DNA of 64,000 nt from Lingula anatina (lineage: Eukaryota > Animalia > Brachiopoda). Location of the stretch: contig CM120647.1 of assembly GCA_051362555.1 (NCBI GenBank), positions 3,906,001-3,970,000 of the forward strand. The letters are read 5' to 3'. Both the position numbers and the translations under genes were made by a program. A model generated the notes under the pieces. The model was not told the DNA's origin. It worked only from the letters and a program-made list of their open reading frames with translations, and did no database searches. Of the stretch, positions 4,801 through 63,764 are shown piece by piece. Position 1 is the stretch's first letter, and each line of letters begins with the position of its first letter.

Positions 4801-6063
4801 TGTATTATCTGTCAATCGAGAGTACTGCCATAAATCTTATTTCTAAACGAGCCACATGACCACCAGCTCGGCTAAATAGAGTCGTTTTCATTTGTGAAGC
4901 AGGAAGGTTAAGCCAATTGCCCTTAATATTACCGAGGACATTATTGTGCGTATACTTATTTAGCCTCCTAAACGTCTGAATAAAGCTTTATCATTCGGAG
5001 GCAAATTATTAAAAAGACATGTCCTGCATATGACATATAAAAGCTCCAACTTGACCTACATGTACCGTCAGTGTAAATACAAACAAAGCTTGTAAAAACG
5101 TACAACAGCAGAAAGGTAAAGGTACTGCTGACATGGTTTAATTACCCCTGAGCTTTTGTATAGTCTTATATAGTCACATTGAAAACTAATACACTATATA
5201 CAGACTTGCCATTTAATATGAAATAATTTTTCCAAATCATTTTTCCCTTTCACCCTTTTTTTCTGACTGAAAATTGAAAATAAGGATTGAAATTATGTTT
5301 TAATGATATGTTTGATGCCATTGTGAAATCAGTTTTATGTTAATGGATTCGCCAATGAATCAAACAAAAATAAATGGCTGATTCTAAGTCTTACGACAAC
5401 CATTTAAAAAAAAATTGACCTTCTTTCTCTGCCACAAGTGCAGAGTAACAATGTTGTGAAACACTGCTTGACTCCGTTAACGCACAGCAAAACTGGATAA
5501 TTTACAATTCTTCTATACCCCCTATGCCAAAATATGGAGTTTTTGAAAAGAACCATGCTTCGTTAAAGGTCGTCAAAAACATGACCATGCAACCCTATAT
5601 AAAGAGAACCACCAAATTAAATCACTGCTTATTACGAAAAGTAGCAATGTTTCAGACATGGTAGACAGGTGATTCAAAATGGGATGTGATTTTTTAAAAG
5701 AATGCATGTGTAGTCAGCTCAACAATCGAAATATCTTAAAATATAATATCAGAAGGTATTCATATCGTGCATTAGTAATGATGTTACCCTAAATATTTTA
5801 AAATGCTATGATGTACTACTATACCATGGTATGGATTCCAGGACAATTCCCCCGGACAGTTCTGATACCAACGGTATGCTACTTGTATCATATGAAAATA
5901 AAACATTGTCACTCTCTTAATTAATCAATTTAGGAGTATATATTAAAGCGCCGTGTGTGTGTGTGTGTGTGTGTGTGCGTGTGTGTGTGTGTGTGTGTAC
6001 ACCTCCCCCCGTTAATGCCCGATTAAGGGGTTCTCGTGCTCGAACAATACCATTTTGACTTAC

Positions 6064-6654
6064 TTTTGATTTTCTAGCAGATCTTGCAAAGTCTTGTGGT
6101 TCTATAATCTGCCAATAGGGAGTATTGCCATGTATGTCACATGTGCAACAAGAGGTCATACTCGGATGATCAGTATTGCTCTGATGCATTGCGTTAAGAA
6201 ACAAACATTGTGTGTTCATCACATCGATAGGCACGGGCGGGCCGAGCATTCTGGCCACTGCTTCAACGCTGTCAATGTACTCCTGCAGGGAACAGTTTTC
6301 TCCCGCCCGAGTGTTCTGTCCGTCTGGCCCCCAACGACCTACAAACACAATGACAATACGTCTCTTTTTCTGGTGTTTTTCAATGAATGTGGTGACTTGA
6401 TGAAGAAGCTCGTCTTTATAACACACCATTACTTCATCGCCTACGCTTCCGCCGCACTGGGAAGCCCCGGGGTATAACTCGCGAAAATTTCGGATTTCCC
6501 ACTCCGTGTTATATGCGTCGAGGGGCGATGTCAGGAAAAGGAATGCCAACTGTCTAGCTTCTTCAATATCTGCATAGTACTCCTGTCTGGCGTCTTCAAA
6601 GGGTGAATCTGCACATGGCTTTGTACCCGTTTTTTCGAAAGGCGTACTTTCCAT
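6064..6654 (-). pseudogene. Degenerate copy 1 of the caspase-like (clan CD) protease exon; lacks the N-terminal domain, catalytic GHG changed to GRW
   Basis: Homologous to 26697..27554 (ADIEEARQLAFLFL, EIRNFRELYPGASQCGG, RIVIVFVGRWGPDGQ); GTAAGT donor at 6063-6058; the ORF runs on into a (CA)n microsatellite. Confidence 0.8.
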
Positions 6655-23459: not shown

Positions 23460-24665
23460 ACAGCTGGGCAGTAACATTGGTGAAAAAGATTGTTCCACCT
23501 CGTCTGGTCAGTAATTTGTTGCAGAAACCCAATGTTCTAAGGCTGGGGAAACCATCTTTGAGTCCTGGCCCCCGTTTCACAAAGAATCTTAAATCCGTAG
23601 ACGTCTTACTCGAGCTGGGTGGCCTAGCTAGGTCGACTTAGCTGAAGTCGACTTGGAGTGTTTCACAAAGAATCTAACGTCTTAGCTTGGCGTGCTTACC
23701 GTAGTCGACGCGCACGAGAAACTCTTCAAGAAAAGGAGGTGTAAAATTGCAAAAGTTTCACAAGACATGACGTTTCATGGCCTCTTTTGGCCGAGAACGA
23801 TCGTTTATCAACAATAAAAGTCAGCCAAAACACAAACAAAGTTTGTTTTTGAACTTAATTGATAAGTTTAACTTCAATACAACTTCAAAGTAACAGTTAA
23901 ACATTAGCTTGTCGTGGAACACTACTGAGGGACGTCTAGCGGTCAAAAACCTTAAACAAACACGCGATCGGCTGGGTAAAGTGGAATTTTATTTTTTTAT
24001 TTTAATATTCCATAAATGTCAGTGCTATTCAAGGATATTATAACACAATATCTTGAAGGAGGTATGTTCTTTCCAAATTTTTGTTGTTTATGCTCTCATT
24101 TACCGAGTTTTAGTTGAGCTTGCCGACTTAAGTCTCCTCCCGAGGAGGCTTGACATCGTCGACTTACAGCTAAGAAAAAAACGACGTAAGCGACCTTTTA
24201 GATTCTTTGTGAAACGGGACTTAGTGACGTAACGACTTAATTACGTTGGTAACCAAGCCCTAAGTCAGGGAAACCGACTTAAGTTTTTTTGTGAAACGGG
24301 GGCCTGATAATAAACCCACTGAGCACCCGTGGCATTAATTGAAGTGTGCATTCCAGAGGAGAACCAAACTCCAGAAAGTCTGGACCAATTCCGCCGAGCT
24401 TTTAAGGAAAGATGAGACAATTTCCAGCAAAACAGAATTGTTACCCTTGTTGAAGGCAAGGAGATAATTACAGAACTCGGGAAACACACGGTAATAGACA
24501 CGTGGACTTTAACAAGCACACCCTAATGCTAAATGTGAGTAAATTTGGTTCAATTTAATAGGCATTTCTTTACATCTGTGGAAATGACAGTGGAACATTG
24601 GATTTAAGTGGGTACGTGTAATAAATGTGAAACTTGGGGTGGGACAACCTTTTTGACCAATGTTG
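23460..24665 (+). mobile_element. Tc1 relic (3' transposase part plus right TIR) interrupted by a MITE
   Basis: Colinear with 50520-51140; ends in tttgaccaatgttg|TA. Confidence 0.8.
23568..24303. mobile_element. Harbinger-type MITE with CTG TSD
   Basis: CTG|gcccccgtttcacaaa ... tttgtgaaacgggggc|CTG; removing it restores the Tc1 SPD.NP.EH motif. Confidence 0.85.
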
Positions 24666-40148: not shown

Positions 40149-41648
40149 AAGTAATAGCCGGCTCATTTAAGTATTTAGACACCTTTCAAAATGGTGCTAC
40201 AGTATCATACCCCGCAACAGATTTTGAGGGGAGATGCACTACCTTCCAACCTCGCTGAAAATCATCACCATCACATCGCGCACTAGGCAAGAGTAGTGTC
40301 ACGTATGATACTTCACAACGCGTACTGATACACACTTTGAAAACGGGTACTGTGGTCCGATCTACCGGCGAATTCAGGATCATTCGGTGCCAAGTCTGGC
40401 AGTTGGATAGGCCTGCGTGTTGTAGGGGCTGTAACAAGTGGTTGAATGGGTAAGAGGAGTAGAAACGGTGTGTATGCGTACGGTGAGGCCCACAACCAGC
40501 CTACCATTGTAAAAACTGACTAAAGACAAATACGAAGAGTTGACTGTGATTACGTTTAAATAGTTTTCAAACAAAAATAATTACCTTTATCAGGATTTAG
40601 ACTGTCTGCATTTCCATCCGTGTTGAGTATTCTTCAGTTCTTGTAGTACACCTGAAATCATCAAAGCTATATATATATGGCATTTAAAGTCAAAGTTATT
40701 TTTGGGTCTATGCTTGTAATTGTAAAGATGGGATGATATAAGACGTATGTATATATCGCGTATGCATATGTATATGTGCGAATAATATACGCACGTGTGC
40801 CAGAGCGAACATTTGAAAATGCAATATCGATAAATAATTGTTACATGAAATGGTAATAAAATATTTATAACCATATTTAAATGAAAATTGAGAAGATGTG
40901 TCTATAAAATAAACTAAAATAGAATAATTAAAATCCATTTTGCTCATTAAAAATTCGTACTGTTGATGGGTAAAAGCTTTAGAGTGGGACATTTAAATTA
41001 CAAGAAGCTCTTCTTATCCTATTATGAATTTGTTTTATTTATTTACTTATTTAATCTAATTTTGTGGAGAGCATATAATGTTTCCAGCGCCTTGCCTCCA
41101 CTTCATTCTTTTGAATAAACGTTGTTTAAAAAATCCTATTATGAATACAGAGGAATGGAGGGGTAGGCTATGCACTAATTAGTGGAAACTGGGCCTTACA
41201 TTTCAACACATTCTGCGCCGACCAGAAATTTTTGCATAAAGCTCCTATGCTGGCTCTCTCTCGACAGAAACTCACCTGTAAAAATATTTTTCCTCAAGGA
41301 CAAGAACGTCAACATCAGTTCACAAATGTGAAGCTATTTAGATTGCGCAACCAAGCAAACAAAAACCATCAAAAGGCTTTATCATATATCGAAACGAATA
41401 GACGTGAGCAACAATGCTTTTAAGAATGAAGAACTTGCACCAGGTCATGTAACAACGACAATTAAGACCTGGGAAAGAGTCTTTGTCAAGATTTGATCGT
41501 AACTCTATCAGCTCACGTGGAAAAGAAAATGTTTACAACCCAAACTTTAAAAGTTCAGAAAGGCCGTTAGGGTATATATACCTACTGCTATATCATAGCC
41601 CTAAAACTTCACAGACAAATTTAAAACTATCATAAAAGTGCTTAGTAT

Positions 41649-41680
<32 letters not shown>

Positions 41681-44427
41681 CATTTTAACCAACGTTTTCT
41701 TTAGATAAAAAAGTAAATTTTTTTATAACAGTGATAAGAGTCGTGGACCATAAAAATGGTGCAGCAGTCACAGAACTCCTGTGACTATATTTTAATGCGA
41801 TTCTGGGGAGTCGGCTTCATTCTAATTTTTCTAAATAATTTTTGTGTCTTTCATGTTTTATATTTACTTCACTTTGTTTATAACATCCGCCAGGGAGATT
41901 ATGTTTCACCTCTGTTTGTTTGCTTGTTGGTTTGCTCGGGACAAGCCTAAATCAAAAATATATATTTTTCAGGATATCTCGGAACTGTCCTAATTTAAAA
42001 TAATTAGAATTTGTTGATGATCCATAAATTAATTAATTAAGTAATAAGTGCTTTAATTATTCGTTTTATTTGATTTTCTTATTTCTTATTGCTAATTCAG
42101 TGAAAAGTGTTGTAGTAAACAGAAAGGAAATCAGGTACACAACATTTTTAACAAAAGGTTACTGCTGGTTGAAACCCATATGAGCGATTTAACCGGGAGA
42201 GAAACTAAGCAATTAAGGGTTATATCCCCATGGGTTGTACGGTACCGCGGGTATGCCAGAAATAAGACACTGACATCTCAAGCGGAGAAGGCCACAAAGT
42301 TACGCGTAGTTTAGAATCCATGTGTGCGTGTTTTCCTTCTTGCTACCGTATGCTGTGGATCGACCTTTGAGAGCCGTGCCTTTTGGGATTCTTCTTTAAT
42401 GATCAAAATTCATGAATTTTATACATAGCATTTTTGCACAGAGGCAGCCTAGTTTTCACTCAAATAACTCAGTGAGTAAGTAAAAGCGATATAATGATAA
42501 TAGATATTCTTTACGCTTTTAAAAATCCCCCAAGTCCCATTTTCTATGTCCACATATTCTGCAAGGCCACTCCCCCCCCCAATTCGCACCTTTAAAACTA
42601 TACAACTCCTCGTATAAAAACAGGGGCAGATCCAGAAATATTTATCTTTGTTGATCCATCCTCCACTTTTGACCGTCTTCCGACAGAAAAAAAATTGCTG
42701 CCCGTCACTGAAAACATTTAAAAAAAAGAATAAAAAATAAAAATTGACTGTCTTCCGGAAGATACATCAGTGGTGCATTCCGATCAGGAATTAAAACATG
42801 ACTTCCTAAATGACTGACCGGTTATACAGAATTAAGTCATTTAATTAAAAATAAAATAAAACATTGAAATCAAGTGCAGAGATGGCTCCAGAAATGATGA
42901 GTGAGTAAGAGAAGATTGCTTTTTAGGAAACTTCATTTTGGCTGGAGAATCCCGTAAAGAGTACATTTAATTAAAATGACAATGTCGAGCACCAAGTCCT
43001 TTGAATGAACATTGTGCGTCATGTTCATGATAATTTGTTAGATTTATAGTCAGAAAATGTATTTCGATAAAAAAATGAGAATAATACAAGGAGCAATAAA
43101 TAAACAAATAAATAAATAAATGAATAAATAAATAAGTAAGTAAACAATGTCACTCACCTTTTTCAACAAGCGTCAACAGTTTACATCTTAAATTTGCGTT
43201 CTTTTCTGAGCGCAAGCTTCTGCAGCTAAGCAGGCACAGCGTGAGTTACTCTAGCTCTTAAATACCTGTAGCAATACCTGAGGTAAACATCTCATGTTTT
43301 CTTCCAGGTTGGATATTGAAAAAGAAAATGGGACCGTCGCCAAACCCAAGGACATGGAAATGCCTATAGTCACCTTTGCGACAAATACCTGCATAATTAA
43401 GCTAAAAGTGGATCGATAGAATGAGATCAATCGACTAAACACACTCTATGGATGACATACTAATGGTGGCGTTATTTATCTCACGACATCTAGCCCGACA
43501 AAAATAGATTCTCTGGTGATTTACATGTAATTTACTAAACATACCCCAACTAAAAATAATGGAAACAACCCACCAAACGGGGAGGAGACAAATCAAATAT
43601 TCGTGTTGCACAAAATAATCATTAAATTGATAATAATATCAAGAGGCGGGTACGAGTGTGGCGATGCTTTTCTTTTTTCACGTGTACCCATAAAACAGTT
43701 TGTGGTTGATTAAAAGCATAGGTTATTCCGCTTTGAATGAATTTCTAAAGACAAAAGAAAAAAACATTGTTTTAGATGTATGTTTTTTAACAGACTTAAT
43801 TCCTATTTATACTACCGGTAGGTCACGTTGCAGTTACACGTGTGCTTTTATATGTCATACGCATAAGATGTTTGTTTAAGACCCAGCTGGATGTTATTTA
43901 GCAAGAAACCCCTCGGAGGTGGGTCTATTCAGCTAAATTGTTCTAGGTATTGGAATGGGGTCTTAAACAAACATCTTAATAACCCCCTTACAGTTTGAAA
44001 TGTCTGTCACGCCAAGTAAAGCTGTAATAGGGTTATTAACTATCATTTAACCTGAATGCAGTTTAGTGGGATCCCCTTTGGAGATGGCTCGATCCTGCTA
44101 GATTGATATAGGTATGGGAATGAGGCCTTATATTTGTGTCTAAAGGTAAAGGCTATATTCAACCGTTCCGACGGCCCAATAAGTATGCACATTGTTGTCC
44201 TCGCACAAAGGGCAACTGGTTTAACCTTCCTTGTTCACAAATGGAAACAGCTCTATTCAGGTAATGTGGTGTACTCGTTCAGAAATGAAATGTATTATGT
44301 TCAATAATTCTGCAATACTACACCCATCCTATCTAAACACAAGATTTCTATGGCTTTTTACTTTGTTGCTGGTTTAAGTTTTTTTCTCGGGCTGAGGCAA
44401 GTTATTTTAACAGCCTTGATATACCTG

Positions 44428-44545
44428 GGCCCCGAGCACAAGCATCTGGATTCCTTAACTCGCCCATACTCGCCCCATACAATACATTGTAGCCTCTATG
44501 TGATATAGCTATTCGCAATACGCGATGCTTTCGAGTTTCGGGGCC
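44428..44545. mobile_element. About 118-bp MITE present in unit A and absent at the paralogous site (about 58390)
   Basis: ggccccga...aagcatc / gatgctt...tcggggcc inverted ends; unit B reads ctggccatg. Confidence 0.65.
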
Positions 44546-45622
44546 ATGGTCACATGGGATTAATCTACCAGTATTCGAGGTCCTCTTTTTTCAACGTTAA
44601 ACTGTTTCATATGTTAATAGCTTTATTTAAGGTTTTGGAGACACGGCAAGGTACTTACCTTTCTTCTAGCTAACCCAGTCACCTGACACCCTACAAACAG
44701 CAACAAACGAAGCAGTCGAATGGTCAATCAACAACAAAAGGACATTTACATTCTAAGAAAAAACAAAGAAATTGCAATTGACTTCTCAAAGTCAGAGCAT
44801 CAGCTTTCTCCAATATACATGTATATGTCGAAAAAGAATGCTTCAAAAATGTACATTAGTGACCACAAAATTCACCACCTTTTACCAACAAGAAGTGAAC
44901 AGTTTTATAAGCTATACAAAGTTCCCAGAAGTGTCTAAAATGAGAACAGTGAGAGCCTCAAGGACTTTTATTCCCTAGGCATTGTTAACTTTTCAGGAAG
45001 CTTATGATTTAACTAAATACATCCAAGGATTGGGATTCTTAATTTGTGGCTCGATTTTCGGATTTGTGCTCACAAATCTGAGGTCCAACTTCACAAACGC
45101 CTTATCCGTCTATAAGACCTATTGACGATCCAAGACAGCAACACAGACGTGAATTTACGGTCGAGGGTGACACGTTTTTAGATATTTTATCAATGCAGAA
45201 ATGACTACACAACCGGCCTATGTTTAGGGTCGATTGCGGTTAGCTTCTTAGTCGGTTTATTATATATGATATCACATATTAGAGATACAGGAGGTAAAAA
45301 TTGGCATCAATTTTTAATGATTCAATGGTGTCTATGAATGGCAGCCCACCCCAAATGATTCTCTGATACACCCAGTAGCTGCGAGTATAATAACAGCTAC
45401 TGGCTCCTTCTCCAAAATCGGAGCTAAGTGTATTGTTATAAAACAATTAAAAAGACCATTGCATGAGGTTTGACCCAAATTACCTCATAGTGTAAACAAG
45501 TCCCCTTATTTATTTGAGGTCGTTGGTGTGTCGACATTAACGGGACATTTTAAAGGCAAATTGAAAGTGCGCCGTTCATAGTCGATCTGCCAAAAAGAAG
45601 GAATAAATGCAATATATCTGCC

Positions 45623-46429
45623 ATGTATTTTGCAGATTCATGGAAGGCCATTAGTGTAGCAGAGTTTAGGGAAATTGTACAACAAGAACAAAAAATTAGA
45701 GAAAAGAGCATATTAGAGAAATACGTGGAGTTGGGATGGCAGGAGTACTGCGCTGATCTACGGGTTAGTGACGAGGACAAAAGGTACTACTATCGTCAAT
45801 TCCTCCTCGGTCGTGGGGAACTTTGCACTAACGCAACACCATCTCCAGAAACGCCATCTGAAGACGCCAGACAGGCATACAATGCAGATATTGAAGAAGC
45901 TAGACAAGTGGCATTTCTTTTCCTGGCAGCGCCACTCGACGGAGATGATATAGTGAAAAGGAAATGCGAAATCCGAAATTTTCGGGAGTTGTACCCCGGG
46001 GCTTCCCAGTGCAGTGGAAACGTGGGCCAGGTAGTAATGGTGTACAACAAAAACGAACTCTTTAACAAAGTCACCACGTACATTGAAGAACACCGTAAAA
46101 AAGGACGTATTGTCATCTTGTTTGTAGGTCATGGGGGACCAGACGGGCAAATCACTCTGGCGGTAGAAAAATGTCCCCTGAAGGAGTACATTGACTGTGT
46201 TGACGAGGTGGCCAACAACCTTTACCCGCCTGTGCCTATCGATCTGATCAACGCCCAATGTTACGCCCATTTGGTGACCAAGTCTAGATGCCCGTCTACT
46301 AAAATAATACATCTGAGTAACGAGGATAGTCCCCAGACGAATTCTCGGTCATATAAGCTAGATGACCAAACTCTTAGTTGGCTAATAGTAGAACTACAAG
46401 ACTACGCACGGACTGTAAGAGACAAACAA
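45623..46429 (+). CDS. Caspase-like (clan CD) protease exon, intact copy 4; predicted exon 1 of a protease-TRAF fusion (unspliced ORF runs to 46480)
   Basis: GCCATG start; RIVILFVGHGG and IDLINAQCY; CAA|GTAAGT donor at 46430 after 269 codons (phase 0). Confidence 0.8.
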
Positions 46430-46869
46430 GTAAGTCTGAGAACACGTTATGTAGTACAATATTTAAGTATTTCAATGTAACGAGGTCATGCAACTTGCAG
46501 AACACATTAATATGCATTAAGTTCGAAAATCGGCATGATCCATTCATTTTTTCTAAAGTTATGCTTTTTTAACATTTTCAGCATATATGCGATACAGACA
46601 ACATATTTCAAGGAAAACTGGGAGGCCTATTATCTTTAAACTTACAGGAGTAATCAATGATATAGGTCAAGTTGGAATTTATGGCGTTTTTGTTTATTTT
46701 GCTATAAATAGCCTGCTGTATGCAACACAGGCAACGCATTTCAAGTCAAACTGATAGGTCTATTTACTTCAAACTTACAGTGATCAACGTTACTAAAATA
46801 CAGGTCGAGTTTGAGTGTCAACTTGATCTGACTATTTTTCTAGAGTTATGCTGTTTTTTCAGCATATAC

Positions 46870-48000
46870 ACTCTTGCCCAAAATGGTTGGTACACGGAAA
46901 TTTTGGGAGGCATATTGCCCTGTTTCTTTCATTATTATTGTTATAATCAAATTAATACTGTTTATATTGTTAAATATGTGAAGCTGGAGGATTGGTAAAG
47001 TCAAGGAGAAACAAACAATGCAAATGTGAAAAAAGCGTAAATTTATTTAGGGTATTTTTTCTCATGCCCCCAAAAAGAGTACTTTTTTTGCATAACAGTA
47101 CCAAGTGAAAAATTCAACATAAATGTATACTGTGATTGACAATTAATATGAAATTAGGGGAAATTGTCTAGAAACATCTTCAGAGTTCATTATTAATCAA
47201 AATAGCGGGCATGCCCACCCCGAGCTTGGATTATGGCCGCCAGACGGCGTGGCATACTGTGAACTAGAGTTACAGCTCTTTGAAGAGGAATTCTGGTCCA
47301 TTCATCTTGCAGGGCATCTCGCAGTTCATCTAGATTTCCAGGGGGCACGTTTCTCCTCTGAATGGCACGACCAAGTTCGTCCCACATGTGCTCAATTGGG
47401 TTTGCACCTGGGCTTCTTGCTGGCTGTGGCATCGGCTGAATGTTGTTTTTTCGAATATAGTCAGAAATTGAGCGGTCTGTTTGGGGAGTTGGATTGTCAT
47501 GTTGCAATCTAAACTTGTCTCTGTATATTCCTCTTGCGAACGGCTCCAGGTACTGCTGGAGAATGTCTCTGTATCTGGCAGCGTTAAGGTTTTCATCCAG
47601 AGGAAGCAATGGGCAAATACCGTTGCTGCAAATGGCACCCCAAACATATACAGAACCACCTCCTCCAGCTATGAGAGTACGTAGGCTCCCTGGGGAGAGG
47701 CTGTTAAATGAAAATATCCAGGAAACAATAGCTGGAGGAGGTGGTTCTGTACATGTAGGGGGTGCACCTCAGACTGTCCAGATTTGGCCTTAAGTCTTTC
47801 AGACAAACCTCTCACGTAAGGCACCTCAATGTTAACCCTCTTTTCCTCTGCTGTGGTGTGTGACTTTCTTATTTGCGGGTGAAATTCTGGCTCTTATGAA
47901 AGACCAATCAGAATATCCGCTATCTGCTAATGCAACCGCCACATAATCTATTTCCTTTTTCATAACCTCAGCCTGGCCTACGACGGTGATGGATCTGTAC
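46870..48000 (-). mobile_element. Tc1 transposase relic in intron 1, with a local inversion
   Basis: ORF 47193..47609: LQHDN, PARSPGANPIEHMWDELGR, SMPRRLAAIIQARGGHARY; outer limits approximate. Confidence 0.88.
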
Positions 48001-48480
48001 ACCTGGGCGTTTGATCAAGTGTCTGTTTTACACAATCGTATGAATCTTATTTACTTTTTGATGCAGAATTAAGTGTAATTGTGCCAAAATTGACATAACT
48101 AAAGCACAATAAAAGGAAGACACTTTTACTTATTATTCTCTAACTTGTTATTTTTAGTTACACAAGCACATTTTGGGAAATATACATTTTCACACCACTT
48201 TTTTTTAAGCTGCGACTTTGAACTTCCATGGTTGGCCACAATTTTTGAATACTGATATCATATTATTAAGATTGGTGGTGATTGTGCTGTAAAGCATCAT
48301 GTAATATATTGCAGCAAAATTGAATAATTCTGGTTATGTTACTTCTGATTCTCATACTTACTGAAAAAATTCATAGGCAAAGGTCGAGGTCGAAAACCGA
48401 CCTGATTGTTTTCCTGGAAGATGTCATTTTTGTGAAATGTTTATTGTTTACATCATGGCATTTTCTTAATTTTTTTCAAG

Positions 48481-48686
48481 GACGCAGATGCCGGTAAACA
48501 GTCTATACCTCAAACACCGACCGAGGAGACGACACAGCCGGCGAAAGGAGGCTTTGATCTTGCACTGTTTCCAGATACAGTTCACGAACGCTTCAAGTGT
48601 AAAACCTGCAAGTTGGTGCTGCGAGATGCGATGCAAGCTCCTTGTGGACACAGGCACTGTACGACGTGTCTAGATGACTTCATTAG
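48481..48686 (+). CDS. TRAF: TRAF exon: RING finger, first part
   Basis: ttttttcaag|DADAGKQSIPQTPTEETTQPAKGGFDLALFPDTVHERFKCKTCKLVLRDAMQAPCGHRHCTTCLDDFI|gtaac; this frame is not in the ORF track. Confidence 0.9.
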
Positions 48687-48950
48687 GTAACAAGAAGTAT
48701 TTATTTTTTCTGTCTGTCTATCAATCACTGTGTTCATATACACGTACATGGCCTACCTGTATGTCTTAATGTTTATGTATCCATCTAACTTTCCTTTTCT
48801 GTCACTACATCGGTCTGTGTGTCACTGCAGTGTCAGTCACTTTGTCTGTTGTATGTTAAAGGGGGTCTTTGTGAGTAAGCATGTCAAACTTCCCCCTCAC
48901 TCTAATTAGTATTGTCTCCCCGCTGTCTGATAACATGTACATTGTTGCAG

Positions 48951-49011
48951 ATCCAGTGGTGCTCAGCGATGCTCGGCCTGTCCAAAAGGCGCAGAAGGCG
49001 GTGAAAGTCAG
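48951..49011 (+). CDS. TRAF: TRAF exon: end of RING (CSAC)
   Basis: ttgcag|(R)SSGAQRCSACPKGAEGGESQ|gtttgt; phase 2 to 0; conserved in unit B. Confidence 0.88.
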
Positions 49012-49467
49012 GTTTGTTCCGTTGTTACTGAACGCTTTAATTATTACAAAAGTGGAATTTTATGTCGGGTAGTGAACGGTTAGCGACGAATATTGTAATT
49101 TTTGTTATAGAGGCATTAAAAGTGGCCTGATAAATACTAGCATTTTTTAAAATTAGTGTAAAATTAGTGACCGCCGGTCAATTTCAATTTATACGCACGT
49201 TTCAATTTATATGGTAACTCAGGTTTATTCATTTGCGTAAAAAAGAGCATGAAATTAAGTTAGGTTACTGATAATGTACATCACGCGTGTGTTGATATTG
49301 AAGAAGTGTGAAGAATGCCAAAATGCGATAACAGGTACAAAATTGTACAACGTTTGGTCAACGTTTTACTTTGATGCTTGCACATTACTGGGATAAAACA
49401 GTTAGTCGGATATGACGTTTTTCAGCAAGAAGTTAAATTTCATTACGTCATGGTTGCTTATGCAATA

Positions 49468-51140
49468 CAGCATTGGTCAAAAAGGTTGTCCCACCCCCTG
49501 TTTCATGTGCTTTTATTTATAGATGATCACATCACAGGAGTTAATTGCTATGAATGATGATTTTCATTCCAGATACCATAACAAACATAATGAGTGGTAG
49601 AGAAAATACTAACTAGCGGTGAAGATATCAATATTTAATACCATTTATTTACATTTATTACATGTACCCCCTCAAATCCGATGTTCCACTGTCGTTTCCA
49701 CAGAGGTAAAGAAACGCCCATTAAATTAAAAAAGACAACACCAAACATCACCAAATTTACACATATGTAGCATTAGCATGTGATCGTTAAAGGTCACGCG
49801 TCTGTTAGCGTGTGTGTTTACCTCGTACTGCAATTACCACCTGTAGACGGCGCCGCTGCCTTCAACAAGGGAAACAATTCTGTTTTGTGGGATCTTGTCC
49901 CATGTTTCCATAAAAGGTTGGCGGAATTGGTTCGGAATATTTGGAGTTTGGTTCTCCTCTGGATTGCACGCTTCAATTCATGCCACGAGTGCTCATCTCA
50001 GAGGTTTTAACAGGACTCGAAGATGGTTTCTCCGCCTCAGAATATTGGGTTTCTCCAACAAATCACTCACCAGACGAAAACTGTGGGCAATTTTGCTGTC
50101 ATGATGAAGCCTGGATCACCCCTGAAGTTCCCCTCTTGCAGATGGAATCAGGTATCAGTTGCGAATGTTAGGCTCAGTGACACCAGAACTACTAGAACTT
50201 GGTCAACCTTCACTAGGAACAAGCTGATTTTTACTGAGGAATCAAGGTATTTCTTGTATGCCTTCGATGGTCAAATTAGGACGCGTAGACATGTAGCAGA
50301 ATGCCTTTTGGAAGGTGTGTGCAGGATAATATCATTTGGGGTGTCATGTCAGTCCACGTTTGTGGAGCATCCCAAGCTCATTGTTTTTAGTAAATTGTTC
50401 TGCCCGGAAAAGAACGTTATTGGGGCAATTCACTGAAACATTCTTAACAAATATCTCACTCCATTTGCAAGAGGTGATTTCAGGGATACTGCTGGCGCCA
50501 TCGTGAAACTGTACTTGCACACAATTCTCGTCTGCTGAGTGATTGAGTGTTGCAGAAACCCAATGTTCAGAGGATGGAGCAACCATCTTTGAGCCTTGAT
50601 ATTAACCATGCCAAGCATCTGCGGCATGAATTAAAGTGGACAATGCAAAGGAGAACCAAGCTTCTAATGATCTGGACCAACTCTTCCAAGCCCTTTGGGA
50701 AGAATGCAACAATATTCCACAAAACATAATTGTTATCCTTGTTGAAGGCAGGCCGCGCCGTCTACAGGATATAATTACAGTACGCGGTAGACACACGCTA
50801 TAATAGACTCGTGACCTTTAACAAGCACACCCTAATGCTAAATGTGTGCAAGTTTGGTGACATTTAGTGGTGTCTTTTGTAATAAAATGGACATTTCTTT
50901 ACCTCTGTGGAAAGCACAGTCAAACGTCAGATTTGAGGGGGTACATGTTATAAATGTGAATAAATGGTATTTAATATTGATATTCACCGCAAGTTTGTAT
51001 TTCCTGTTCCACTAATCATGTTAGTTATGGTATCTGGAATGAAAATCACTATTTATAACAATTTCCACCTGTGATGTGATCAATGATAAATGAAAAAACA
51101 CGTGATACTGGAAGTGGGACACCATTTTTGACCAATATTG
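49468..51140. mobile_element. Palindromic (foldback) Tc1 derivative with TA TSD, inside a TRAF intron
   Basis: TA|cagcattggtcaaaaagg ... ccatttttgaccaatattg|TA; about 700-bp inverted arms; the centre reads LIFTEESRYFLYAFDGQIRTRR. Confidence 0.88.
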
Positions 51141-51338
51141 TATGAATCTATCCCGACCGTTAGTATTATGTGTATTACATGTAAGTAAACGCGGGTAATT
51201 TCTAGAAGTGTATGTTCGTCTCTAATTGTTCATCTCATTGATTATAAGATTTGTCACATAATTGACTTAGGTTTTTCTGATGCACTTTGTGACTTCACCG
51301 TCCCTTTTAAAATTAATTTTCAATTGCACATCTTTCAG

Positions 51339-51440
51339 ATATTTCTGGATAACGCTATGAGACTTGAAGTGAATAAACTGGAGATAGTTTGTGACCAAAA
51401 TGGCTGTATATGGACTGGATGTTTGCAAGAATACCAGGAG
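51339..51440 (+). CDS. TRAF: TRAF exon: RING-adjacent helix and zinc finger 1
   Basis: tctttcag|IFLDNAMRLEVNKLEIVCDQNGCIWTGCLQEYQE|gttggt, resembling TRAF2 FPDNAARREVESL..VC...GCTWKG. Confidence 0.9.
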
Positions 51441-52165
51441 GTTGGTCCTCTTATTACATAGGATTTTGATTTTAACGTCCGTTAAAGGCATAATAACTCT
51501 TCATATGAGATCTATATTTCATAGTAAAACCCTTGTGAATAACTCATAGAAATATGATATATTCTGTTTTACCACAGAAACAGCAGTTATAGCTTTTATT
51601 CTGATATCTGAACTTGTCTTTAGACCACGTGACCTCCATTGATGTCTATACTCTGTTAAAATCTCTTAAGAGATTTTAACAAAAAACCAAACTTTTTAGA
51701 AAAAAACCAGGGACTAACTTTGAACGTAAAAATGGATTCATTAACCATTGGTAAGTATGGGAAAATTGTTGTTTACTCCAGGAAAATTCATTTTTTGGCC
51801 GAAACGAAGAGTTATTATTGCTTTAAGCACTTTTTATTGTGCTTACCAAAAATCACACCTTTTGATTCCAACTGCTGCGCTCACCGCAATCTGTTAGCAG
51901 TTTGCTTATGTCTCAGGAGTTTTTGTCATTCGTCTTTTTCTAACTATTTCCAGTAGCCTACGCCTTATGGTCTAAATATAAATTTGAGTTAACTTTCGGG
52001 CTTATCGTTTTGCAACTATGGGTTAGGTACATTTCATTTGTTTTCTTCTGGAAATGTTTAGTAAAACATGATACCTGCCCATAGACTCACCAGGATTGAC
52101 AATAACACGAACAAATCTTCTCCGGGAAATTCTGTCAATATTCTGTTTATTATTTTTTTCTGCAG

Positions 52166-52852
52166 ATTCATGAAAAGTCATGTCGGACAAGACAATCCAC
52201 CATCCCCGATGCCGAGCTCAGAGAGGGGTCAGACAGAGGCGCAGAGAGGCACGAACAAACAATTTTCATGAAAGATGGTTTAAGACCGCCGGATCTAAAG
52301 AAGCAAATCCATGTACCTGAAAGTTTTGACCAAGAAGAGGAAAAGCTAATCACAACATTTCAGCGAATGAAAATCTCAACATTGGAAGGACTTGACAGCT
52401 AGAGCGGTGCTTCAAATTGGAAGATCACAGACTTTTTTCGCAAACGTCAGGATTCCCTTAGCGGTCGTCTCACCAGTCTTGACTCGCCCCCGTTCTATAC
52501 CAGTCCCCGCGGGTACAAAATGTGCTGTCGTATTTTCCTGGATGGTTCCGAAACTGGAAAGGGAACCCACGTTAGCATTTATTTCGTACTAATGCCCGGC
52601 CAGTTTGATGATCAGCTCCGTTGGCCATTCGGTCAAAGCATGTCCATTTCGTTAGTTGACCAGAAGGACACAGATCCGGCAGACATCACTATTAAATTCA
52701 TACCCGACCCATCAATTTCCAAGCGGCCGATATCAGACATGCAAGTCGTTGCAGGATATCCAAAATTCGTATCACTCCGCGAGTTATACGGCCACACAGA
52801 AACTACCTACGTCAAGGATGACGTGATGGTTATACGGGCAACTGTAGATTGA
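52166..52852 (+). CDS. TRAF: TRAF terminal exon: end of zinc finger, linker and MATH/TRAF-C domain; in-frame TAG at 52400-52402
   Basis: ttctgcag|IHEKSC...LEGLDS*SGASNWKITDFFRKRQ...SPPFYTSPRGYKMCCRIFLDG...THVSIYFVLMPGQFDDQLRWPF...YVKDDVMVIRATVD*. Confidence 0.9.
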
Positions 52853-55800
52853 AGCTCCCTATAGGTTAGAGCTGATCTTATGGTAACTGCCTTACATCTT
52901 GTTCACTTCATTTTGAAATGATACATTCCTATATACGTATAATTTGTTATGGCCGAATTCTTAAGCCTATTCATAACCCTTTTGATATCACCCAAAGTCT
53001 TGGAAGAGTGGGAGCTATTTACCTGCTGTCCGACGGTACCCCTCGCGGAATTGTAAAATCTACGGGAGACTGGATAAATTATGCAAATTTTGAACATACC
53101 TGTATTAAGCTATGTGAAATATGGCACTACAATCGGACCATAAAACACACTTCAGTTTCATATCTGGATACTAAACGAAAACATTACAGACTACGCATTA
53201 AAGGGACCAAAAAGTACGTTAAAGCGACACGTCGCTGGAGAGTCAAAACCAGGCCGAAAACTACCCTCTACGTATATATGCACGTGTGTTACGAATACAC
53301 AAAAATTTTAGAAGTGTAGCACCTTGGTATGCCGTAAACTTCTGTTAAAAATTTATTCTTTGCTCTGCTGCAGTATCACTCAGGATGATAACTGTACATA
53401 TTGTAACGGACTTTGTATCAACATTTGTAAAATATTTTCAAGTAATTTTAAAAGTTTTATACAAATAATGCCTTCACTGTAATGTTAACATTCTTTATTT
53501 TGCTGAAGTGCCTTGCTGGGGTAATATCATATTTTATGTATAAAAGTATATATGTAGCTAATTTAATCAAAATATGTTGTATTTACCAAATTCATATTGA
53601 TTTACTTGGTTATAATGTTTTTAATTAGCCAATGGATTCTTTTTTGAGCTTGCATGTCATTCAGGGGTAATGACAATTTAACGGATAATTGTACATTCTA
53701 ATTTACTTTGAATTACTTAACCTGTAATTGCATCTAACTTAATTTTGATAAGAAAATGATTGTACTTACATATCGATATACTGGATAAATTCGTGTAATT
53801 TATTTCTATACGTTTTTATTTGTGCCACAGACAGTGTAACAGCATGTTTATTTCACTATTATGCAAATGTTTGTAGTATCTAAAGGGATTTTATGTAGTT
53901 GACATTTTTTCGGATTTTCTTCGTTACTGTTATAGTGAGAAATAATGACAACGACGATCTGGAGCTTTCGAACGTTTATTCACTTACTCTCTCTTTATAC
54001 AACTCCAAAATATTTATACTCAATTTCTCCGTACTGATCACGCATTTACTTGTTTTCTTTTCCATTGTCTTTGCGTGATTACAAAATATTTTCTATTCGC
54101 ATGTTGCAAGTCACCATGCAACATTTCCTTATTAGGTAATCTCTAAGAGACTTGTTTTCAATTAGATATATCTAAAATATTATTTGGATTACTCATGCTT
54201 GGACCTTATCCAAAACTCAGTTATCATGTGATAAACAGTTGATCAAAATTAAAATATGAAATAAACCAATCACATGAACTGTTACTGACTTTGACCTTTT
54301 CCATCTTTTTCTGACTTTAAAGACATCTTCTACACTTGTTGACTTTTGATGAAACCTAACTTACACTCAATAACTCTCTATCCGTTTACTCTGTTGATTC
54401 CGCTTTAATCGTTATCTGTAATTAGTGAAAGTGTAAGTAATTTGCTTTACAACACTATTTAAACATCTTCATGTACTTCACAATGATAGTCTATAGTCTA
54501 GACGTATACAAAATAATAAAAAAATTAAGTGGGTCGGTACATGTGGCTTTAGTACATATAGTACAGTACAGTACAGTACAGTACACTATATGTCTGTACT
54601 GCGTAAACAGATAACATCCCCTTCTTTATTTTGCACATTGCACCATTGCAGTGAACTTAACATAGAAAATTATATCCTGACCTTATTTAAATTAAGGTAA
54701 TATTGTATTAAGGCTACTGTCGGGGATAGCCAAGAATCCTTGTTTAATGCCTAATTAAAGCTTTGAGTTGCCTATGGGGGGGAGGGGGGGGGTGCTTGCA
54801 AAACAGTGTTAACAAAATACCCTTCAAGCTTGAGGGCTACATGTATCTTTTACACATGAATTATGGCGTTACTTTATAAATAAATAACCTAGACCCTAAA
54901 ACATTATTTCAAGGTTTCCTGAGCTTTATGATGCACACTAACATGGGTAAAGTCTGGGGATAAGTAAGCCCAGCACCAGTGCTATATTAAATGGACACAT
55001 TTGGGATTAAGAAAGCCAAGAAATGCCGTATGGTGCATGTACCTACTGCTGTGTTCTAGTGCTAAAACTTCACAGGCTTTAAAACTATTATAAAAGTACT
55101 TAGTATTAAAAGTAAAAAAAAATATATATTTCAACCAACGTTTTCTTTGTATAAAATGTAAATTTCTTTTAAAACCGTGATAAGAGCCGTGGACCATAAA
55201 AATGGTGCAGCTATCACAGAACTCCTGTGACTATATTTTATTGCGATTCTGGGGAATCGGCTTCATTCTAATTTCTTAATTAATGTTTGTGTCTTTTATG
55301 TCTTATATTTAATTCACTTTGTTTATAACATCCGCCAAGGAGGTCATGTTTCACCTCTGTTTGTTTGCTTGTTTGTTTGCTCAGTACCCGCCTAAATCAA
55401 AAATAGATTTTTATTAATTTTTCAGGATATGTCGGAACTGTGTTAATTGAAAATAATTAGATTTTGGTGATCATCCATTAATTAATTAAGTAAGTAAGTA
55501 ATCAGTGCTTTTATTATTCGTTTTATTTTATTTTCTTATTGCTAACTCTCCGAAAAGTATTGTAGTTAACATAAAGGGAATCAGGTACACACACCTTTTT
55601 AACAAAAGGTTATAAATTAATTACTACCAGTTGAAACCCTCATGAGCAATTTATCCAGGAGAGAAACTTAGCAATTAAGTGTTATACCCCCGTGGGTTGT
55701 ACATGTACGGCACCGCGGGTATGTTTGCAATAAGACACAATTATTTCAGGCAGAGAAGGCCACTAAGTTCTGCGTAGTTTAGAAACCATGCCCGTCTGTT

Positions 55801-57307
55801 TTCCTTTTTGCTTTGCTGTGCATCCACCTTTGAGAGCCGTGCCTTTTGGGACCCTTTAATGATCTACTTTCATGAATTGTATACATAGTATTTTTGCAGA
55901 GGCAGTCTCCTAATTTTCATTTAAATAGCTTAGTAGATAAAAGTGATATAATGATAATAGATATTCTTTACGCTTTTGAAAATTCCCCCAGGTCCTATTT
56001 TCTATGTCGACATATTTTGCAAAGCTACTTTTTCCCCCGATTCGCACCTTTAAAACTATACAACTTCTCATACAAAAACGGGCGGATTTAGAGAAATTTA
56101 CTGGCAGTCTTCCAAATTTTCTTTGTTGATCCATCCTCCACTTTTGACCGTCTTCCGACAGAAAAAAAATAGATGCCCGTCACAGTAAAAAAATTGAATG
56201 TCTTCCGGAAGACACGTCAGTGGTGCATTCAGAAATAATCAGGAAGACATGGCTTCCTAAATGACTGACCGGTTATACAGAATTAAGTCATTTAATTAAA
56301 AATAAAATGAAACATTGAATTCAAGTGCAGAGATAGATCGAGAAATGTTGAGTGAATATGAGAATATTGCTTTTTAGGAAATTTCATTTTGGTTGGAGGA
56401 TCCCGTAAAGAGTACATTTAATTTAAATGACAATGTCGAGCATCAAGTCCTTTGAATGACCATTTTGCGTCATGTTCATGATAATTTGTTAAATTAATAA
56501 TCATAAAATATATTTCGATAAATAATGAGAATAATACCAGGAGCAATAAATAAATAAATGAAAAAATAAATAAGTAAATAATGTCACCCACCTTTTTCAA
56601 CAAGCGTCAACAGTTTACATCTCAAATTTACGTTCTTTTCTGAGCGCAAGCTTCTGCAGCTAAGCAGGCACAGCGTGAGTTACTCTAGCTCTTAGATACC
56701 TGTAGCAATACCTGAGGTAAACATCTCATGTTTTCTTCCGGGTTGAAAAAGAAAATGGGACCGTCGCCAAACCCAAGGACATGGAAATGCCTATAGTCAC
56801 CTTTGCGACAAATACCTGCATAATTAAGCTAAAGTGGATTGACAGAATGAGACCAATCGACTAAACACACTCCATGGATGACATACTAATGGTGGCGTTA
56901 TTTATCTCACGACATCTAGCGCGACAAAAATAGATTCTGTGGTGATGTACATGTAACTTACTAAAAATACCCCAACTAAAAATAATGAAAACAACCCACC
57001 AAACGGGGAGGAGACAAATCAAATATTCGTGTTGCACATAATAATCATTAAATTAATAATAATATCAAGAGGCGGGTACGAGAGTGCCGATGCTTTTCTT
57101 TTTTCACGTGTACCCATAAAACAATTTGTGGTTGATTAAAAGCATAGGTTATTCCGCTTTGGATGAATTTCGAAAGACAAAAGAAAAAAAAACATTGTTT
57201 TAGATGTACGTTTTTAAACAGACTTAATGCCTATTTATACTACCGGTAGGTCACGTTGCAGTTACACGTGTGCTTTTATATGTCATACGCATAAGATGTT
57301 TGTTTAA

Positions 57308-57853
57308 GAGCGCATTCTCAACGAATTAAGCCAGGCTTTACAAAGCCGGTGACCTAAAAATGGCGGACGTACATGAAAGAAAAACCGCCTAATCTTTTAA
57401 TAGTCTCTCCGCCTCTCACACGCCTCCCCACACGTCGTCCCTGCGGGGTACAGTAATTAAATCTCGGCTCCGAACATTAATATTTCCGTGAATATCTCTG
57501 GTGATATTATCTCCGTAGATAGTCGATTCATTGCTGCTCTACGGGCCAAATTATTCCTTTTTCGTCTCTGTTTTCAAAGATAATAGAACAGAAGAGCTTT
57601 TTTCCTTCGATCGCCTTCAGCCGCCACGCTTTCTTCACCACGAGTTTAACTGATGAGCATGCGCACTTAATATTTCTCAGGTAGCTTCCGCATGGCGAAC
57701 GGAGACGCGATTTAATTACTGTACCCCGCAGGGACGACGTGTGGGGAGGCGGAGAGACTATTAAAAGATTAGGCGGTTTTTCTTTCATGTACGTCCGCCA
57801 TTTTTAGGTCACCGGCTTTGTAAAGCCTGGCTTAATTCGTTGAGAATCCGCTC
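57308..57853. mobile_element. PIF/Harbinger (Tourist-like) MITE, 546 bp, long TIRs, TAA TSD
   Basis: TAA|gagcgcattctcaacg ... cgttgagaatccgctc|TAA; arms of about 150 bp; empty site tttgttTAAgaccc at about 43877 in unit A. Confidence 0.92.
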
Positions 57854-59511: not shown

Positions 59512-60326
59512 ATGTATTTTACAGATTCAGGCAAGAGCATTAGTGTAGAAGAGTTTAGGGAAATTGTACAACAAGAACAAAAAATTAGAGAAAAGAGCAT
59601 ATTAGAGATATACGTGGAGTTGGGATGGCAGGAGTACTGCGCTGATCTACGGGTTAGTGACGAGGAAAAAAGGGACTACTATCGCCAATTCCTCCTCGGT
59701 CGTGGGGAACTGTGCACTAACGTATTGCCATCTCAAGAATCACCTTCTGAAGAAGCCAGACAGGCGTGCAGTGCAGATATTGAAGAAGCTAAACAGGTGG
59801 CATTTCTTTTCTGGCAGCACCACTCGACGGACATGACAGGGAGAGAAGGCAGTGCGAAATCGGAAATTTTCGCGAGTTATACCCCGGGGCTTCCCAGTGC
59901 GGCGGAAACGTAGGCTATGAAGTAATGGTGTACAATAAAAACGAGCTTCTTCATCAAGTCACCACATTCATTGGAGTACACAGTAAAAAGGGACGTATTG
60001 TTATCGTGTTTGTAGGTCATGGGGGACCAGACGGGCAGATCACTCTGGCTGGAGAAAACTGTCCCCTGCAGGAGTACATTGACTGCGTTGACGAAGTGGC
60101 CAAGAACCTTCATCCGACCGTCCCTATCGATCTGATCAACGCCCAATGTTACGCCCATTTGGTGCCAACAGCAGGACATCCATCTGTTAACATAATACAT
60201 CTAAGTAACAGATATAATCCCGAGACGCATTCTTGGCAGTATTATGAGGTAGATTTCAGCTCCCACATGCCAAAATGGTGCATAATAGAACTACAAAGTT
60301 TTGCAAAGGCTGCTAAAGATAAACAA
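59512..60326 (+). pseudogene. Caspase-like protease exon, copy 5, with a 1-nt deletion near 59811
   Basis: ORFs 59458..59913 and 59925..60359 join if ttcTGG is read as ttcCTG, as in copy 4; GHG and AQCY are intact; CAA|GTAAGT at 60327. Confidence 0.8.
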
Positions 60327-62639
60327 GTAAGTCAGAGAACAATTGATCTAGTTCATTAGTATTTCAGTATTACGATTTAAGATACCACGCATCGGTAAGT
60401 CATTGCATCCCCTGAGGGCACGCATGCTTTTAGTCCGGACCCGTCTCGTACGTCGGTTCCACCGCTTGCTGCATTTTTGTAGAGCTTATCAAGCGCAACA
60501 CTGGGGATGGTGTCCGTTTTTTTAAAATTTAGTTACGATTTAAGAATTGCCCTTTATCAAAAAGTATACCTTCGTGAAGTTTAATGGCGAAAGAAAAATT
60601 GAAATGCTCCAAAACTGGCAGAAATACGCCCGTAATTATTATTGAACGTGAATAGGAAGTAATACATTGGCATGTGACCTAGAATTTTGACCTACTTTTC
60701 CCCACGATTTTATGTAATTAATTATCTATATAAATATTATGGTGATTTTCATATACTACACAGACCTACAAGTAAGCTTTCCGATAGTGCTGAGAAGTTA
60801 AACTTTTAGTATCATTCTAATGGGATATACGCAGCCGTTGCTTTTAAAAATTAAAACACTCTAATTAACAGAATCGAGAATACTTTTTGTTACATTTTGT
60901 AGAGCGTGTCAAGAGTGCAAGATGGGAATCCCTGCCTTCTTTGAAATGTATTTAGTATTCTTTTTATAGAGTATCATAAAAGCAAGGTGACATAAAGAAC
61001 TATATTTAAGAGATATATGTAGGACATATTTTCAACTGGAGCAGATTTCATTGTGAAGAACCACATTGTGGTTATACCTCAACAGTCACACATAAATAGT
61101 GTAATTATAACTAAATAATGAACTAATATACAAACAGGTTTATTTTAATGAATTAAAACATCTGCCGTTCTAAAATCTTTGTAAGTGACAAGTAATTACA
61201 TAATATCTCAACATATGATAAATAATTAACCATATTCCCATATGTATTTATGGTAATTTGACAAAAGATTTGAATAATATGAAACTATAAATATATAATG
61301 GTTTTATGGTTGACAGGTGTGTGAAAAGTATTCAAAATCAAGCTTTAACTGTTAATGATAACAGATCCCTGGCAGTTCTTCATTCTTAATTTAATCATAT
61401 GGCAAACGGCGGCCATGTTTGGATTTTTCAAAAATGTACAGAGAAAATGGACTGGAAACTAAGCAGATATATATTATAGGTGTAATAACGTTGTGGAAAA
61501 CAATGAGAATCAAACTAAATTAGTAAAATAACACTATTTCCCCCTAGGCACGCATTTATGTAGTTGAAACCCATAAATTCTTAAGGGAAATGGCAGCCAG
61601 TTTTGTTTTTTCTCAAATGCTGAAGGATACACAATTTGAGAAGCAATCTAAATTTGATAATGGGCATTTTATCTCCCTGGTTGTAATTGTTACACCCACA
61701 TAACTTCGGGATTGGCGACCGTCTTAGGTTTTTCACATTCCCAATGCCGGGATTCATTTAGGGGACTTCACAGAAAAGCACTGTGGTAAAATAGAAACTA
61801 ATACATGTAGTACTTTCCAATCAAACTGTAGATTGCCTGGATAGAGTGATATTCAAGGACTATAAGGTATACTAGTATATCGCAGTGGCACATATCGTGA
61901 GACAGTACTCCACAAAAATTGCTGCGAGGATATTCTTATGCGAGGTCGAACCCGGCCAATATAAAATTTTTAAATTCGTCTACCGTGTTTGGAGCGCTAG
62001 CTCTTTCTTTCTTGAAAGCGAGGCAATGGAACCAAACACTACGATGCAGTTTGTAATCTCGTCAAACTTGATATTTTTTAAATACAGATCATAGCACGAC
62101 ATACATGGATAGGCGATTCGCTAATTAATGTGGTATTCAATAATAATAATAATAATAAGTATAAAAAGCACGATATAAAATGCACAATATAATATAATAA
62201 TATGCCTAGCCAATTTATTAGCCTAATTGACATTTCTTTTAGAATTTAGAGTCTCGGCTGAGTATTTTGATACATAAGATAATTACACTAGTTTTAAAAT
62301 TCTCATGAGAATCAATTAAGCCAGCGGGATTGAACTAATGGCCCACAGGGCGGATAGAGAAATTCGATAACAAAGCCTTTGCAATAGTGCGATTTACTTA
62401 CATAAATAGGTTGGATGGTAATACAGATTACCGCCAAAATCTAAAAATGTGTTCCTTGACCCATTATCGAGATATACAGTTTCTTTAGTAGTTAAATGTA
62501 CTTAAATTGATTTATTTTCGTGACAATGCCGAATGTATACAAATATAATATATAATACAATAATGTGAATATATATGTAACGGCCCAGCCCTATGGGCTT
62601 ACAACGTCACCGGTTTTTAAACATTAATTATATAGCAAC

Positions 62640-63258: not shown

Positions 63259-63467
63259 GATAAAGATGCCAGTAAAAAGTCTATTACTTCGCCGTCGCCG
63301 CCAGAGGAGACGACACAGTTCGCTGGAAAAGGCTTTGCTCTTGCACTGTTTCCAGATACTGTTGACGAACGCTTCAAGTGTAAAACCTGCAAGTTGGTGC
63401 TGCGAGATGCGATGCAAGCTCCATGTGGACATAGACACTGTAAGACGTGTCTAGATGACTTCATTAG
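63259..63467 (+). CDS. TRAF: Second TRAF RING exon (unit B); the in-phase acceptor appears mutated
   Basis: GKGFALALFPDTVDERFKCKTCKLVLRDAMQAPCGHRHCKTCLDDFI|gtaac; tcaat|gat where unit A has tcaag|gac. Confidence 0.8.
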
Positions 63468-63703
63468 GTAACAAGAAGTATTTTTATGCCTTTCTGTCTG
63501 CCATATGGCCTATGTTTGTGTATCCGTACGAGTTTCCATTTATGCATATCAACTTTTCTGTCTCTAAGTCTATCTGCCTGTGTCACTGTGTTAGTCAGTT
63601 AGTGTGTCTGTCGTGTGTATAGGGGGTCTTTGTGAGTAAGCATACCCCCCTCAATCCGACAGTCATTCTGCCCCTATGTCAGGTAATCTGTTCATTGTTT
63701 CAG

Positions 63704-63764
63704 ATCTACCGATAGTCGGCGCTGTTCGGCCTGTCCAGAAGGCGCAGAAGGCGGTGAAATTCAG
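63704..63764 (+). CDS. TRAF: Second TRAF gene, RING-end exon (gene would continue beyond the window)
   Basis: tttcag|(R)STDSRRCSACPEGAEGGEIQ|gtacag; 61 nt, as in unit A. Confidence 0.85.

Follow-up and report, generated by a model that had tools for sequence, protein, structure and literature searches.

A predicted clan CD protease exon ahead of a TRAF2/3-type gene in the brachiopod Lingula anatina

Gene structure at the locus

Examination of a 64,000-nucleotide stretch of the Lingula anatina genome (GenBank assembly GCA_051362555.1, contig CM120647.1, positions 3,906,001 to 3,970,000 of the forward strand; hereafter the window) points to a five-exon gene in which the exons of a TNF receptor-associated factor (TRAF) are preceded by one that encodes a domain predicted to be a clan CD protease. 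The window holds four copies of this first exon, namely A (45623, +), B (59512, +), C (27554, -) and D (about 6630, -), plus fragments; the gene described here is copy A. On balance, we read it as a tandem member of a Lingula family whose intronless exon, predicted to encode a clan CD cysteine protease, is likely spliced before a TRAF2/3-type gene, copy A itself being stopped before its MATH domain.

Exon 1 of copy A (45623..46429, +; 807 nt, 269 codons) encodes a helical N-terminal part and the predicted protease domain. It ends in phase 0 at CAA, directly followed by the donor GTAAGT with its GT at 46430, and reading through this donor (46430..46480, +) reaches a stop, which yields the 285-aa single-exon alternative found in the list of open reading frames (ORFs). 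The phase-0 donor that a first-pass annotation of this DNA had placed inside the 285-aa ORF is thus present, with the unspliced frame ending at 46480. Exon 2 (48481..48686, +) encodes a linker and most of a C3HC4 RING (C309, C312, C324, H326, C329, C332); its acceptor at 48481 comprises a T-rich tract and then AAG, and a second possible acceptor lies at 48487. The RING ends in exon 3 (48951..49011, +; C345, C348), and exon 4 (51339..51440, +) encodes the first half of a TRAF zinc finger (C376, C381). The 5' part of exon 5 (52166..52402, +) contributes the end of this finger (H394, C398), a 70-aa linker and a TAG at 52400-52402, while its 3' part (52403..52852, +) encodes an open TRAF2/3-type MATH domain after the stop. 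All the exons are bounded by GT/AG and are compatible in frame over 1863 nt, or 620 codons, with a single internal TAG at codon 471. Re-derivation from the GT/AG ends and phases therefore reproduces the five phase-compatible exons, 620 codons and 470 residues ahead of the TAG given by the first-pass annotation, which was also correct in noting that the RING exon lacks an ATG before the RING: the first in-frame methionine falls within the RING itself.

Exons 2 and 3 together make a complete C3HC4 RING, and exons 4 and 5 a single TRAF zinc finger, with all ligands present. The best match of exon 2 to the Pfam RING families (E 2.4e-5) lies below the curated cut-off, and PF00097 scores over its cut-off in proteins P0001 and P0002. 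The MATH region (52403-52849) is a clean 149-codon ORF that is recovered by Pfam at E 9.7e-37 and matches TRAF2 at E 4e-38. As compared to TRAF2, the MATH domain of copy A shows DGSE in place of NGDG, a shortened SSSF and AGY in place of SGC, at positions that we take to form the receptor groove and at which the intact paralogue XP_013417979.1 shares the TRAF2 state.

Related gene models in Lingula and beyond

Two RefSeq proteins carry the same combination. XP_013419997.1 (Lingula anatina, 381 aa) is identical to exon 1 over 269 residues and differs at 3-4 positions in exon 2, and by sequence is this locus or an allele of it. In its model exon 1 is spliced to the first AG, at 48480; exons 2 and 3 follow, after which the frame carries on into intron 3 and closes without MATH. 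XP_013417979.1 (697 aa, on another scaffold) was the sole match among 1656 candidates in the search of longer proteins. It comprises the N-terminal domain (residues 1-215), RING, zinc finger, a long coiled coil with TRAF-N and a TRAF2/3-type MATH, with no stop. Thus, the order protease, RING, zinc finger and MATH proposed by the first-pass annotation is found full length and intact in XP_013417979.1, and the proposed join is used in XP_013419997.1. Copy A and XP_013417979.1 are 52% identical in the protease, 50% in RING plus zinc finger and 50% in MATH, and the 50-60 residue linker ahead of the RING is unconserved between them. In RefSeq the two are labelled 'uncharacterized' (XP_013419997.1) and 'TNF receptor-associated factor 2' (XP_013417979.1), with the N-terminal domain unannotated and without a Pfam match. 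The gene models are therefore already on record, but the domain is uncatalogued in them.

A scan of 1.84 billion representatives returned 8 matches at E<=0.001, of which two are the Lingula proteins, five are unnamed proteins of 29-37% identity and one is a repeat artefact (P0007), which was excluded from the relatives. Pfam does not recognise the domain in the five distant relatives, nor do their called ORFs include RING or MATH; these are single-ORF calls on short contigs that could hide further exons. In two of them (P0003 and P0009) a single intronless ORF carries the domain two or three times in tandem, the upstream copies of P0009 being without the His and Cys motifs. A word-indexed protein search with profile A2 recovered P0001 as its sole match. 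Pattern scans based on the alignment A3 confirmed none of 60 metagenome, 22 viral and 37 prokaryote candidate stretches, and these contigs thus yielded no source in bacteria or viruses; likewise, none of 33 candidates was confirmed on comparing P0009 with metagenome contigs.

The N-terminal domain

The predicted protease domain of copy A spans about residues 95-268, with His170 and Cys213, 43 residues apart, as a putative catalytic dyad. A nine-row multiple alignment (A3), from which the degenerate copy D (without the His) and the spurious repeat match P0007 were left out, contains 11 invariant columns, including G169-H170-G171 and Q212-C213 in 9/9 rows. Its Cys motif is AQC[YFH] (N-A-Q-C). 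The catalytic Cys motif of caspases is QACxG, and AQC is also unlike the motifs of metacaspases and paracaspases. By motif, therefore, the domain is neither caspase nor paracaspase, and this difference suggests that it likely forms its own family within clan CD, with proteolysis as a predicted activity. Sequence libraries gave little: Pfam Peptidase_C14 (PF00656) was seen in copy C only (E 0.1, 12.8 bits against a cut-off of 21.4), the N-terminal domain of copy A had no Pfam match at all, NCBIfam gave no families for copies A and C, and sequence and profile searches of the PDB returned nothing below E 0.5, with no match to MALT1 or any other chain.

Structure prediction was more informative. 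A model of copy A from a 5-row alignment has strands and helices alternating from residue 96 to 268, with His170 after the strand 162-168 and Cys213 after the strand 206-210; an earlier single-sequence fold with a predicted local distance difference test score (pLDDT) of 42 was set aside. The Atlas model of XP_013417979.1 residues 1-215 matched other predicted structures with template modelling (TM) scores of 0.57-0.68 over 166-186 residues in all 10 listed rows. The 4 of these rows that can be named are three caspases and CHAT, both sides of each comparison being predicted, and the scores against the caspase-8 and caspase-3 clusters were 0.65, again between predicted structures. In the Atlas feature search with the same domain, Peptidase_C14 accounted for 27 of the 30 named-cluster matches; with the copy A domain, two unnamed clusters came first, followed by C14 and C13 clusters at 0.89-0.90.

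Against solved structures the outcome is less clear. The fold model of copy A itself is mediocre (pLDDT 61), and Foldseek found no match for it at E<=0.001 among solved structures, procaspase-1 being placed at rank 8. In the VIA comparison of the same model caspases occupied 10/50 rows (Z 6.0-6.7, root-mean-square deviation 3.8-4.6, 112-131 residues aligned), scores that equal those of unrelated alpha/beta folds and channels. A homodimer prediction of the domain, folded without an alignment, scored 0.00 and gives no answer on dimerisation. Taking the models together, we nevertheless consider a clan CD (caspase/CHAT/C13) fold very probable. The caspase-hemoglobinase fold assigned by the first-pass annotation accordingly agrees with the Atlas model, the clan CD identity of 4/4 nameable rows and the conservation of His and Cys in 9/9 rows. 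The description 'caspase-like' stands insofar as a clan CD fold is predicted, but neither a caspase QACxG motif nor a PF00656 score above the cut-off goes with it.

One fused gene or two adjacent genes

Comparison of exon 1 of copy A with the other copies gives ratios of nonsynonymous to synonymous substitution (dN/dS) of 0.38 against copy C (Fisher p 1e-7; 0.23 in the core), 0.43 against the 3' part of copy B (p 3e-4) and 0.67 against copy D (p 0.05). By this measure the exon is coding beyond chance and under purifying selection. The start of the exon (45626-45636, +) is also readable as an acceptor, with TATTTTGCAG followed by AT in A and TTTTACAG in B, and a further exon may lie upstream. 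The join between exon 1 and the RING exon is one that we infer from splice signals, phases and gene models.

The principal alternative is that two adjacent genes, a 285-aa single-exon protease and a TRAF that is a pseudogene without its own first exon, were duplicated as a block, and that the fusions are artefacts of gene prediction. This we consider unlikely, though a number of observations speak for it and against a single gene. RNA was surveyed over copy A only, in four of the nine runs labelled for the species and in 6-26% of each. At least three reads were needed for a joint to be listed, and the 46429-48481 joint does not appear among those displayed for the four runs (15 of 16), where depth near the junction is about 1. 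Depths over the exons of copy A are 0-3, with exon 1 covered in run X8 and the RING exon in runs X1 and X7. In X8 about 13 read-equivalents fall on exon 1 as against about 3 on the downstream exon bins, roughly a fivefold excess, and the exon-1-like RNA of this run may mostly not continue into the TRAF of copy A. Both RefSeq entries are computed models in single-member clusters with no assembled-transcript member, and the in-frame Met 220 of XP_013417979.1, just past the protease domain, could be the start of a TRAF-only product. A stop at 46480 closes the protease ORF, neither RING nor MATH exons were found downstream of copy C within the window, and the five distant relatives likewise lack both in the ORFs called for them. 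Finally, copy B has AAT where the first AG is expected and retains only the second, phase-incompatible AG, so that, as the first-pass annotation had remarked, the AG common to A and B is the one at 48487.

In X7 the balance is the reverse, with about 1 read-equivalent on exon 1 and about 7 on the later exon bins. Three reads of this run join 48686 to 48974; a B-like transcript may have produced them, since 48974 is where the match of copy B's exon 3 begins. The junction between protease and RING exons proposed by the first-pass annotation is thus not among the joints listed, while the 48686 donor further along the same model is joined onward.

Several observations tell against two separate genes. 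Two RefSeq models on different scaffolds have the same kind of exon joined to the RING, with adjacency, orientation and frame retained between loci that are only ~50% identical, and the even divergence of protease, RING and MATH would be expected if one fused gene had duplicated long ago. In a tree of 10 domains XP_013417979.1 branches as the sister of copies A-D from the window (82/98; the fork is not starred), so that the TRAF linkage would be present in both branches of this split. The GTAAGT donor occurs at the same codon boundary in 4/4 window copies, with differing read-through tails; the chance of such retention is about 0.008 under neutrality and 0.2 if constraint at the protein level acts on the two codons. 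Besides the missing start codon of the RING exon, the first introns of A and B share no block past the first ~50 nt that would point to a conserved alternative first exon, and the pyrimidine tract stops at the position of the first AG in A and B alike. Together these observations suggest that the fusion is likely real for the family, and that the TRAF architecture is probably real, new and lineage-restricted.

State of copy A and other copies in the window

Between zinc finger and MATH, copy A has a linker of 70 aa as against 181 aa in XP_013417979.1. It is thus short of about 110 coiled-coil residues, i.e. most of the coiled coil. Its TAG before MATH aligns with a Tyr of XP_013417979.1; the possibility that the TAG is a cryptic acceptor was ruled out by eye, there being no pyrimidine tract upstream. 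Owing to the stop, the coiled coil (TRAF-N) and MATH are not in one polypeptide in copy A, whereas XP_013417979.1 has both. The MATH-mediated trimerisation and induced proximity that the first-pass annotation envisaged are consequently unsupported for copy A, with most of the coiled coil gone and the frame closed at codon 471.

A second alternative is that the fusion is real and copy A functions in its short form, as a protease with RING and one zinc finger (470 aa; 381 aa in RefSeq) that is uncoupled from receptors and partners full-length TRAFs constitutively or as a decoy. Exon 1, the dyad and the RING and zinc-finger ligands are all intact, XP_013419997.1 also ends without MATH, by way of intron 3, and a stop in the last exon is not expected to elicit nonsense-mediated decay. 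Since the MATH frame behind the TAG is otherwise a clean 149-codon ORF, though, the stop looks recent, and the selection detected on exon 1 may predate it. The neighbouring copies B and D are broken and expression reaches about 1-3x at best, and we judge a functional short form improbable. Thus, from its sequence copy A is likely decaying as a member of the fused family, and the cluster looks like the product of birth-and-death evolution, because copies B and D are broken as well. Tandem TRAF pairs and lineage-specific expansion are described for the oyster in PMC4346834.

Copies A and B lie within a tandem duplication (41557-46480 and 55019-60380) with a period of about 13.5 kb and 82-91% identity. 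The protease exon of copy B (59512..60327, +) is a tandem duplicate that keeps the GTAAGT donor and has a one-base frameshift near 59811; its RING exons (63259-63467 and 63704-63764, within 63259..63764, +) are mutually in frame, and the gene leaves the window. The recurrence of protease then RING at 59.5-63.8 kb, to which the first-pass annotation had appealed, therefore stands as an order of exons, but with copy B frameshifted and its first AG gone. Copy C (27554-26712, -) is intact, 72% identical, keeps the donor and has a different ATG. Behind it, 22613-22750 (-) is a candidate phase-0 terminal exon of 45 codons, with a good pyrimidine tract and CAG, encoding a Ser-rich part and then a Cys-containing basic tail; if spliced, it would be a second, non-TRAF partner for the protease exon. 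A phmmer TRAF match at 23387-23536 (E 0.012) was rejected as it reads through stops. Copy D (6061..6630, -) is a degenerate protease exon with the donor kept, the His gone and the 5' end disrupted. Fragments of the exon also occur at 19301-19600 (-), 7277-7351 (-) and 8025-8099 (-), the last two within a 754-bp tandem repeat of 97% identity.

The introns of copy A contain further repeats. Intron 1 includes a 191-codon frame (47193-47768, -) whose motifs resemble those of a Tc1/mariner transposase remnant, and intron 3 a long inverted repeat of 78% identity (49465-50180 with 50430-51143). In intron 4, 51463-52024 is a high-copy repeat over which RNA depth climbs to about 1800 and whose ends are linked by joints on the opposite strand; it is probably an element, common in transcripts, that resembles a miniature inverted-repeat transposable element.

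Functional implications

TRAF2 and TRAF3 trimerise on clustered receptor tails or adaptors. In human TRAF2/TRAF3 (PDB 1CA9, 8ZUK) the order of RING, zinc finger, coiled coil and MATH is the same as in the Lingula family, and XP_013417979.1 matches TRAF2 at E 9e-74 and TRAF3 at E 5e-72. Unlike them, the family has an additional N-terminal predicted protease domain of ~215-270 aa and only one zinc finger, and copy A further lacks most of the coiled coil, stops ahead of MATH and is changed at several groove positions. As in MALT1 and other type 1 paracaspases, a clan CD protease, predicted here, would be tied to TRAF signalling. MALT1, according to PMC5978004, has the order death domain-Ig-Ig-protease-Ig and recruits TRAF6 as a separate protein, whereas the Lingula protease would be N-terminal and within the TRAF chain; Pfam detects neither death nor Ig domains in P0001 or P0002. 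The likeness to initiator caspases (caspase-8, Dronc, CED-3; PF00656) is one of predicted fold, with His-Gly and Cys after parallel strands. The Cys motif differs, as the domain has N-A-Q-C, and so does the recruitment module, which is a C-terminal TRAF and not an N-terminal CARD or DED.

In light of these connections, we propose that the MATH and coiled coil of XP_013417979.1 would bind clustered receptor tails or adaptors and trimerise as in TRAF2/3, bringing up to three N-terminal protease domains together. The gathered proteases could then begin to cut substrates in signalling or cell death, or their own polypeptide, such that receptor engagement would lead to cleavage without death-domain adaptors. 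This mechanism fits the intact paralogue and not copy A, where a stop precedes MATH and the coiled coil is mostly missing. Given the fusion, proximity-driven cleavage in trans seems to us evenly balanced between being right and wrong; catalysis, activation by clustering and an immune role are put forward by analogy with the systems above. That the protease of a real fusion would instead act in cis, freeing an ordinary TRAF2/3 adaptor by self-cleavage with no need for protease dimers, is very unlikely. In favour of it are the small size of the domain, which measures about 170 residues between its first core strand and its last helix, the missing caspase QACxG, the tandem and inactive copies in its distant relatives, and the autopeptidase activation proposed for bacterial constant caspase modules in PMC8195603. 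Against it, no cleavage site is evident, the pre-RING linker is unconserved and copy C, stand-alone in appearance, would have nothing to release.

A protease-TRAF fusion was not found in the literature titles and abstracts searched, a set outside of which most subscription papers lie, and the accessible portions of PMC5978004, PMC8195603, PMC4346834 and the PMC4595640 supplement describe none. A survey of Lingula immune genes by Gerdol and colleagues in 2018 reportedly exists and may bear on novelty. The reach of the finding is limited, with the fusion found only in Lingula and the window copy broken. More tentatively, the domain might represent an undescribed animal clan CD family (IxFxGHG ... 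AQC), fused in Lingula to a complete TRAF2/3 as a single-chain switch from receptor to protease that skips death-domain adaptors such as FADD or BCL10, and borne on a mobile phase-0 exon that was duplicated and joined to other tails elsewhere. A RefSeq protein labelled 'TRAF2' would in that event hide a protease family missed by profile libraries. TRAFs are viewed as adaptors and ubiquitin ligases that depend on other proteins to bring in proteases; if the reading is true, a TRAF with a caspase-fold protease in its own chain would offer a natural way of testing whether trimerisation alone triggers proteolysis.

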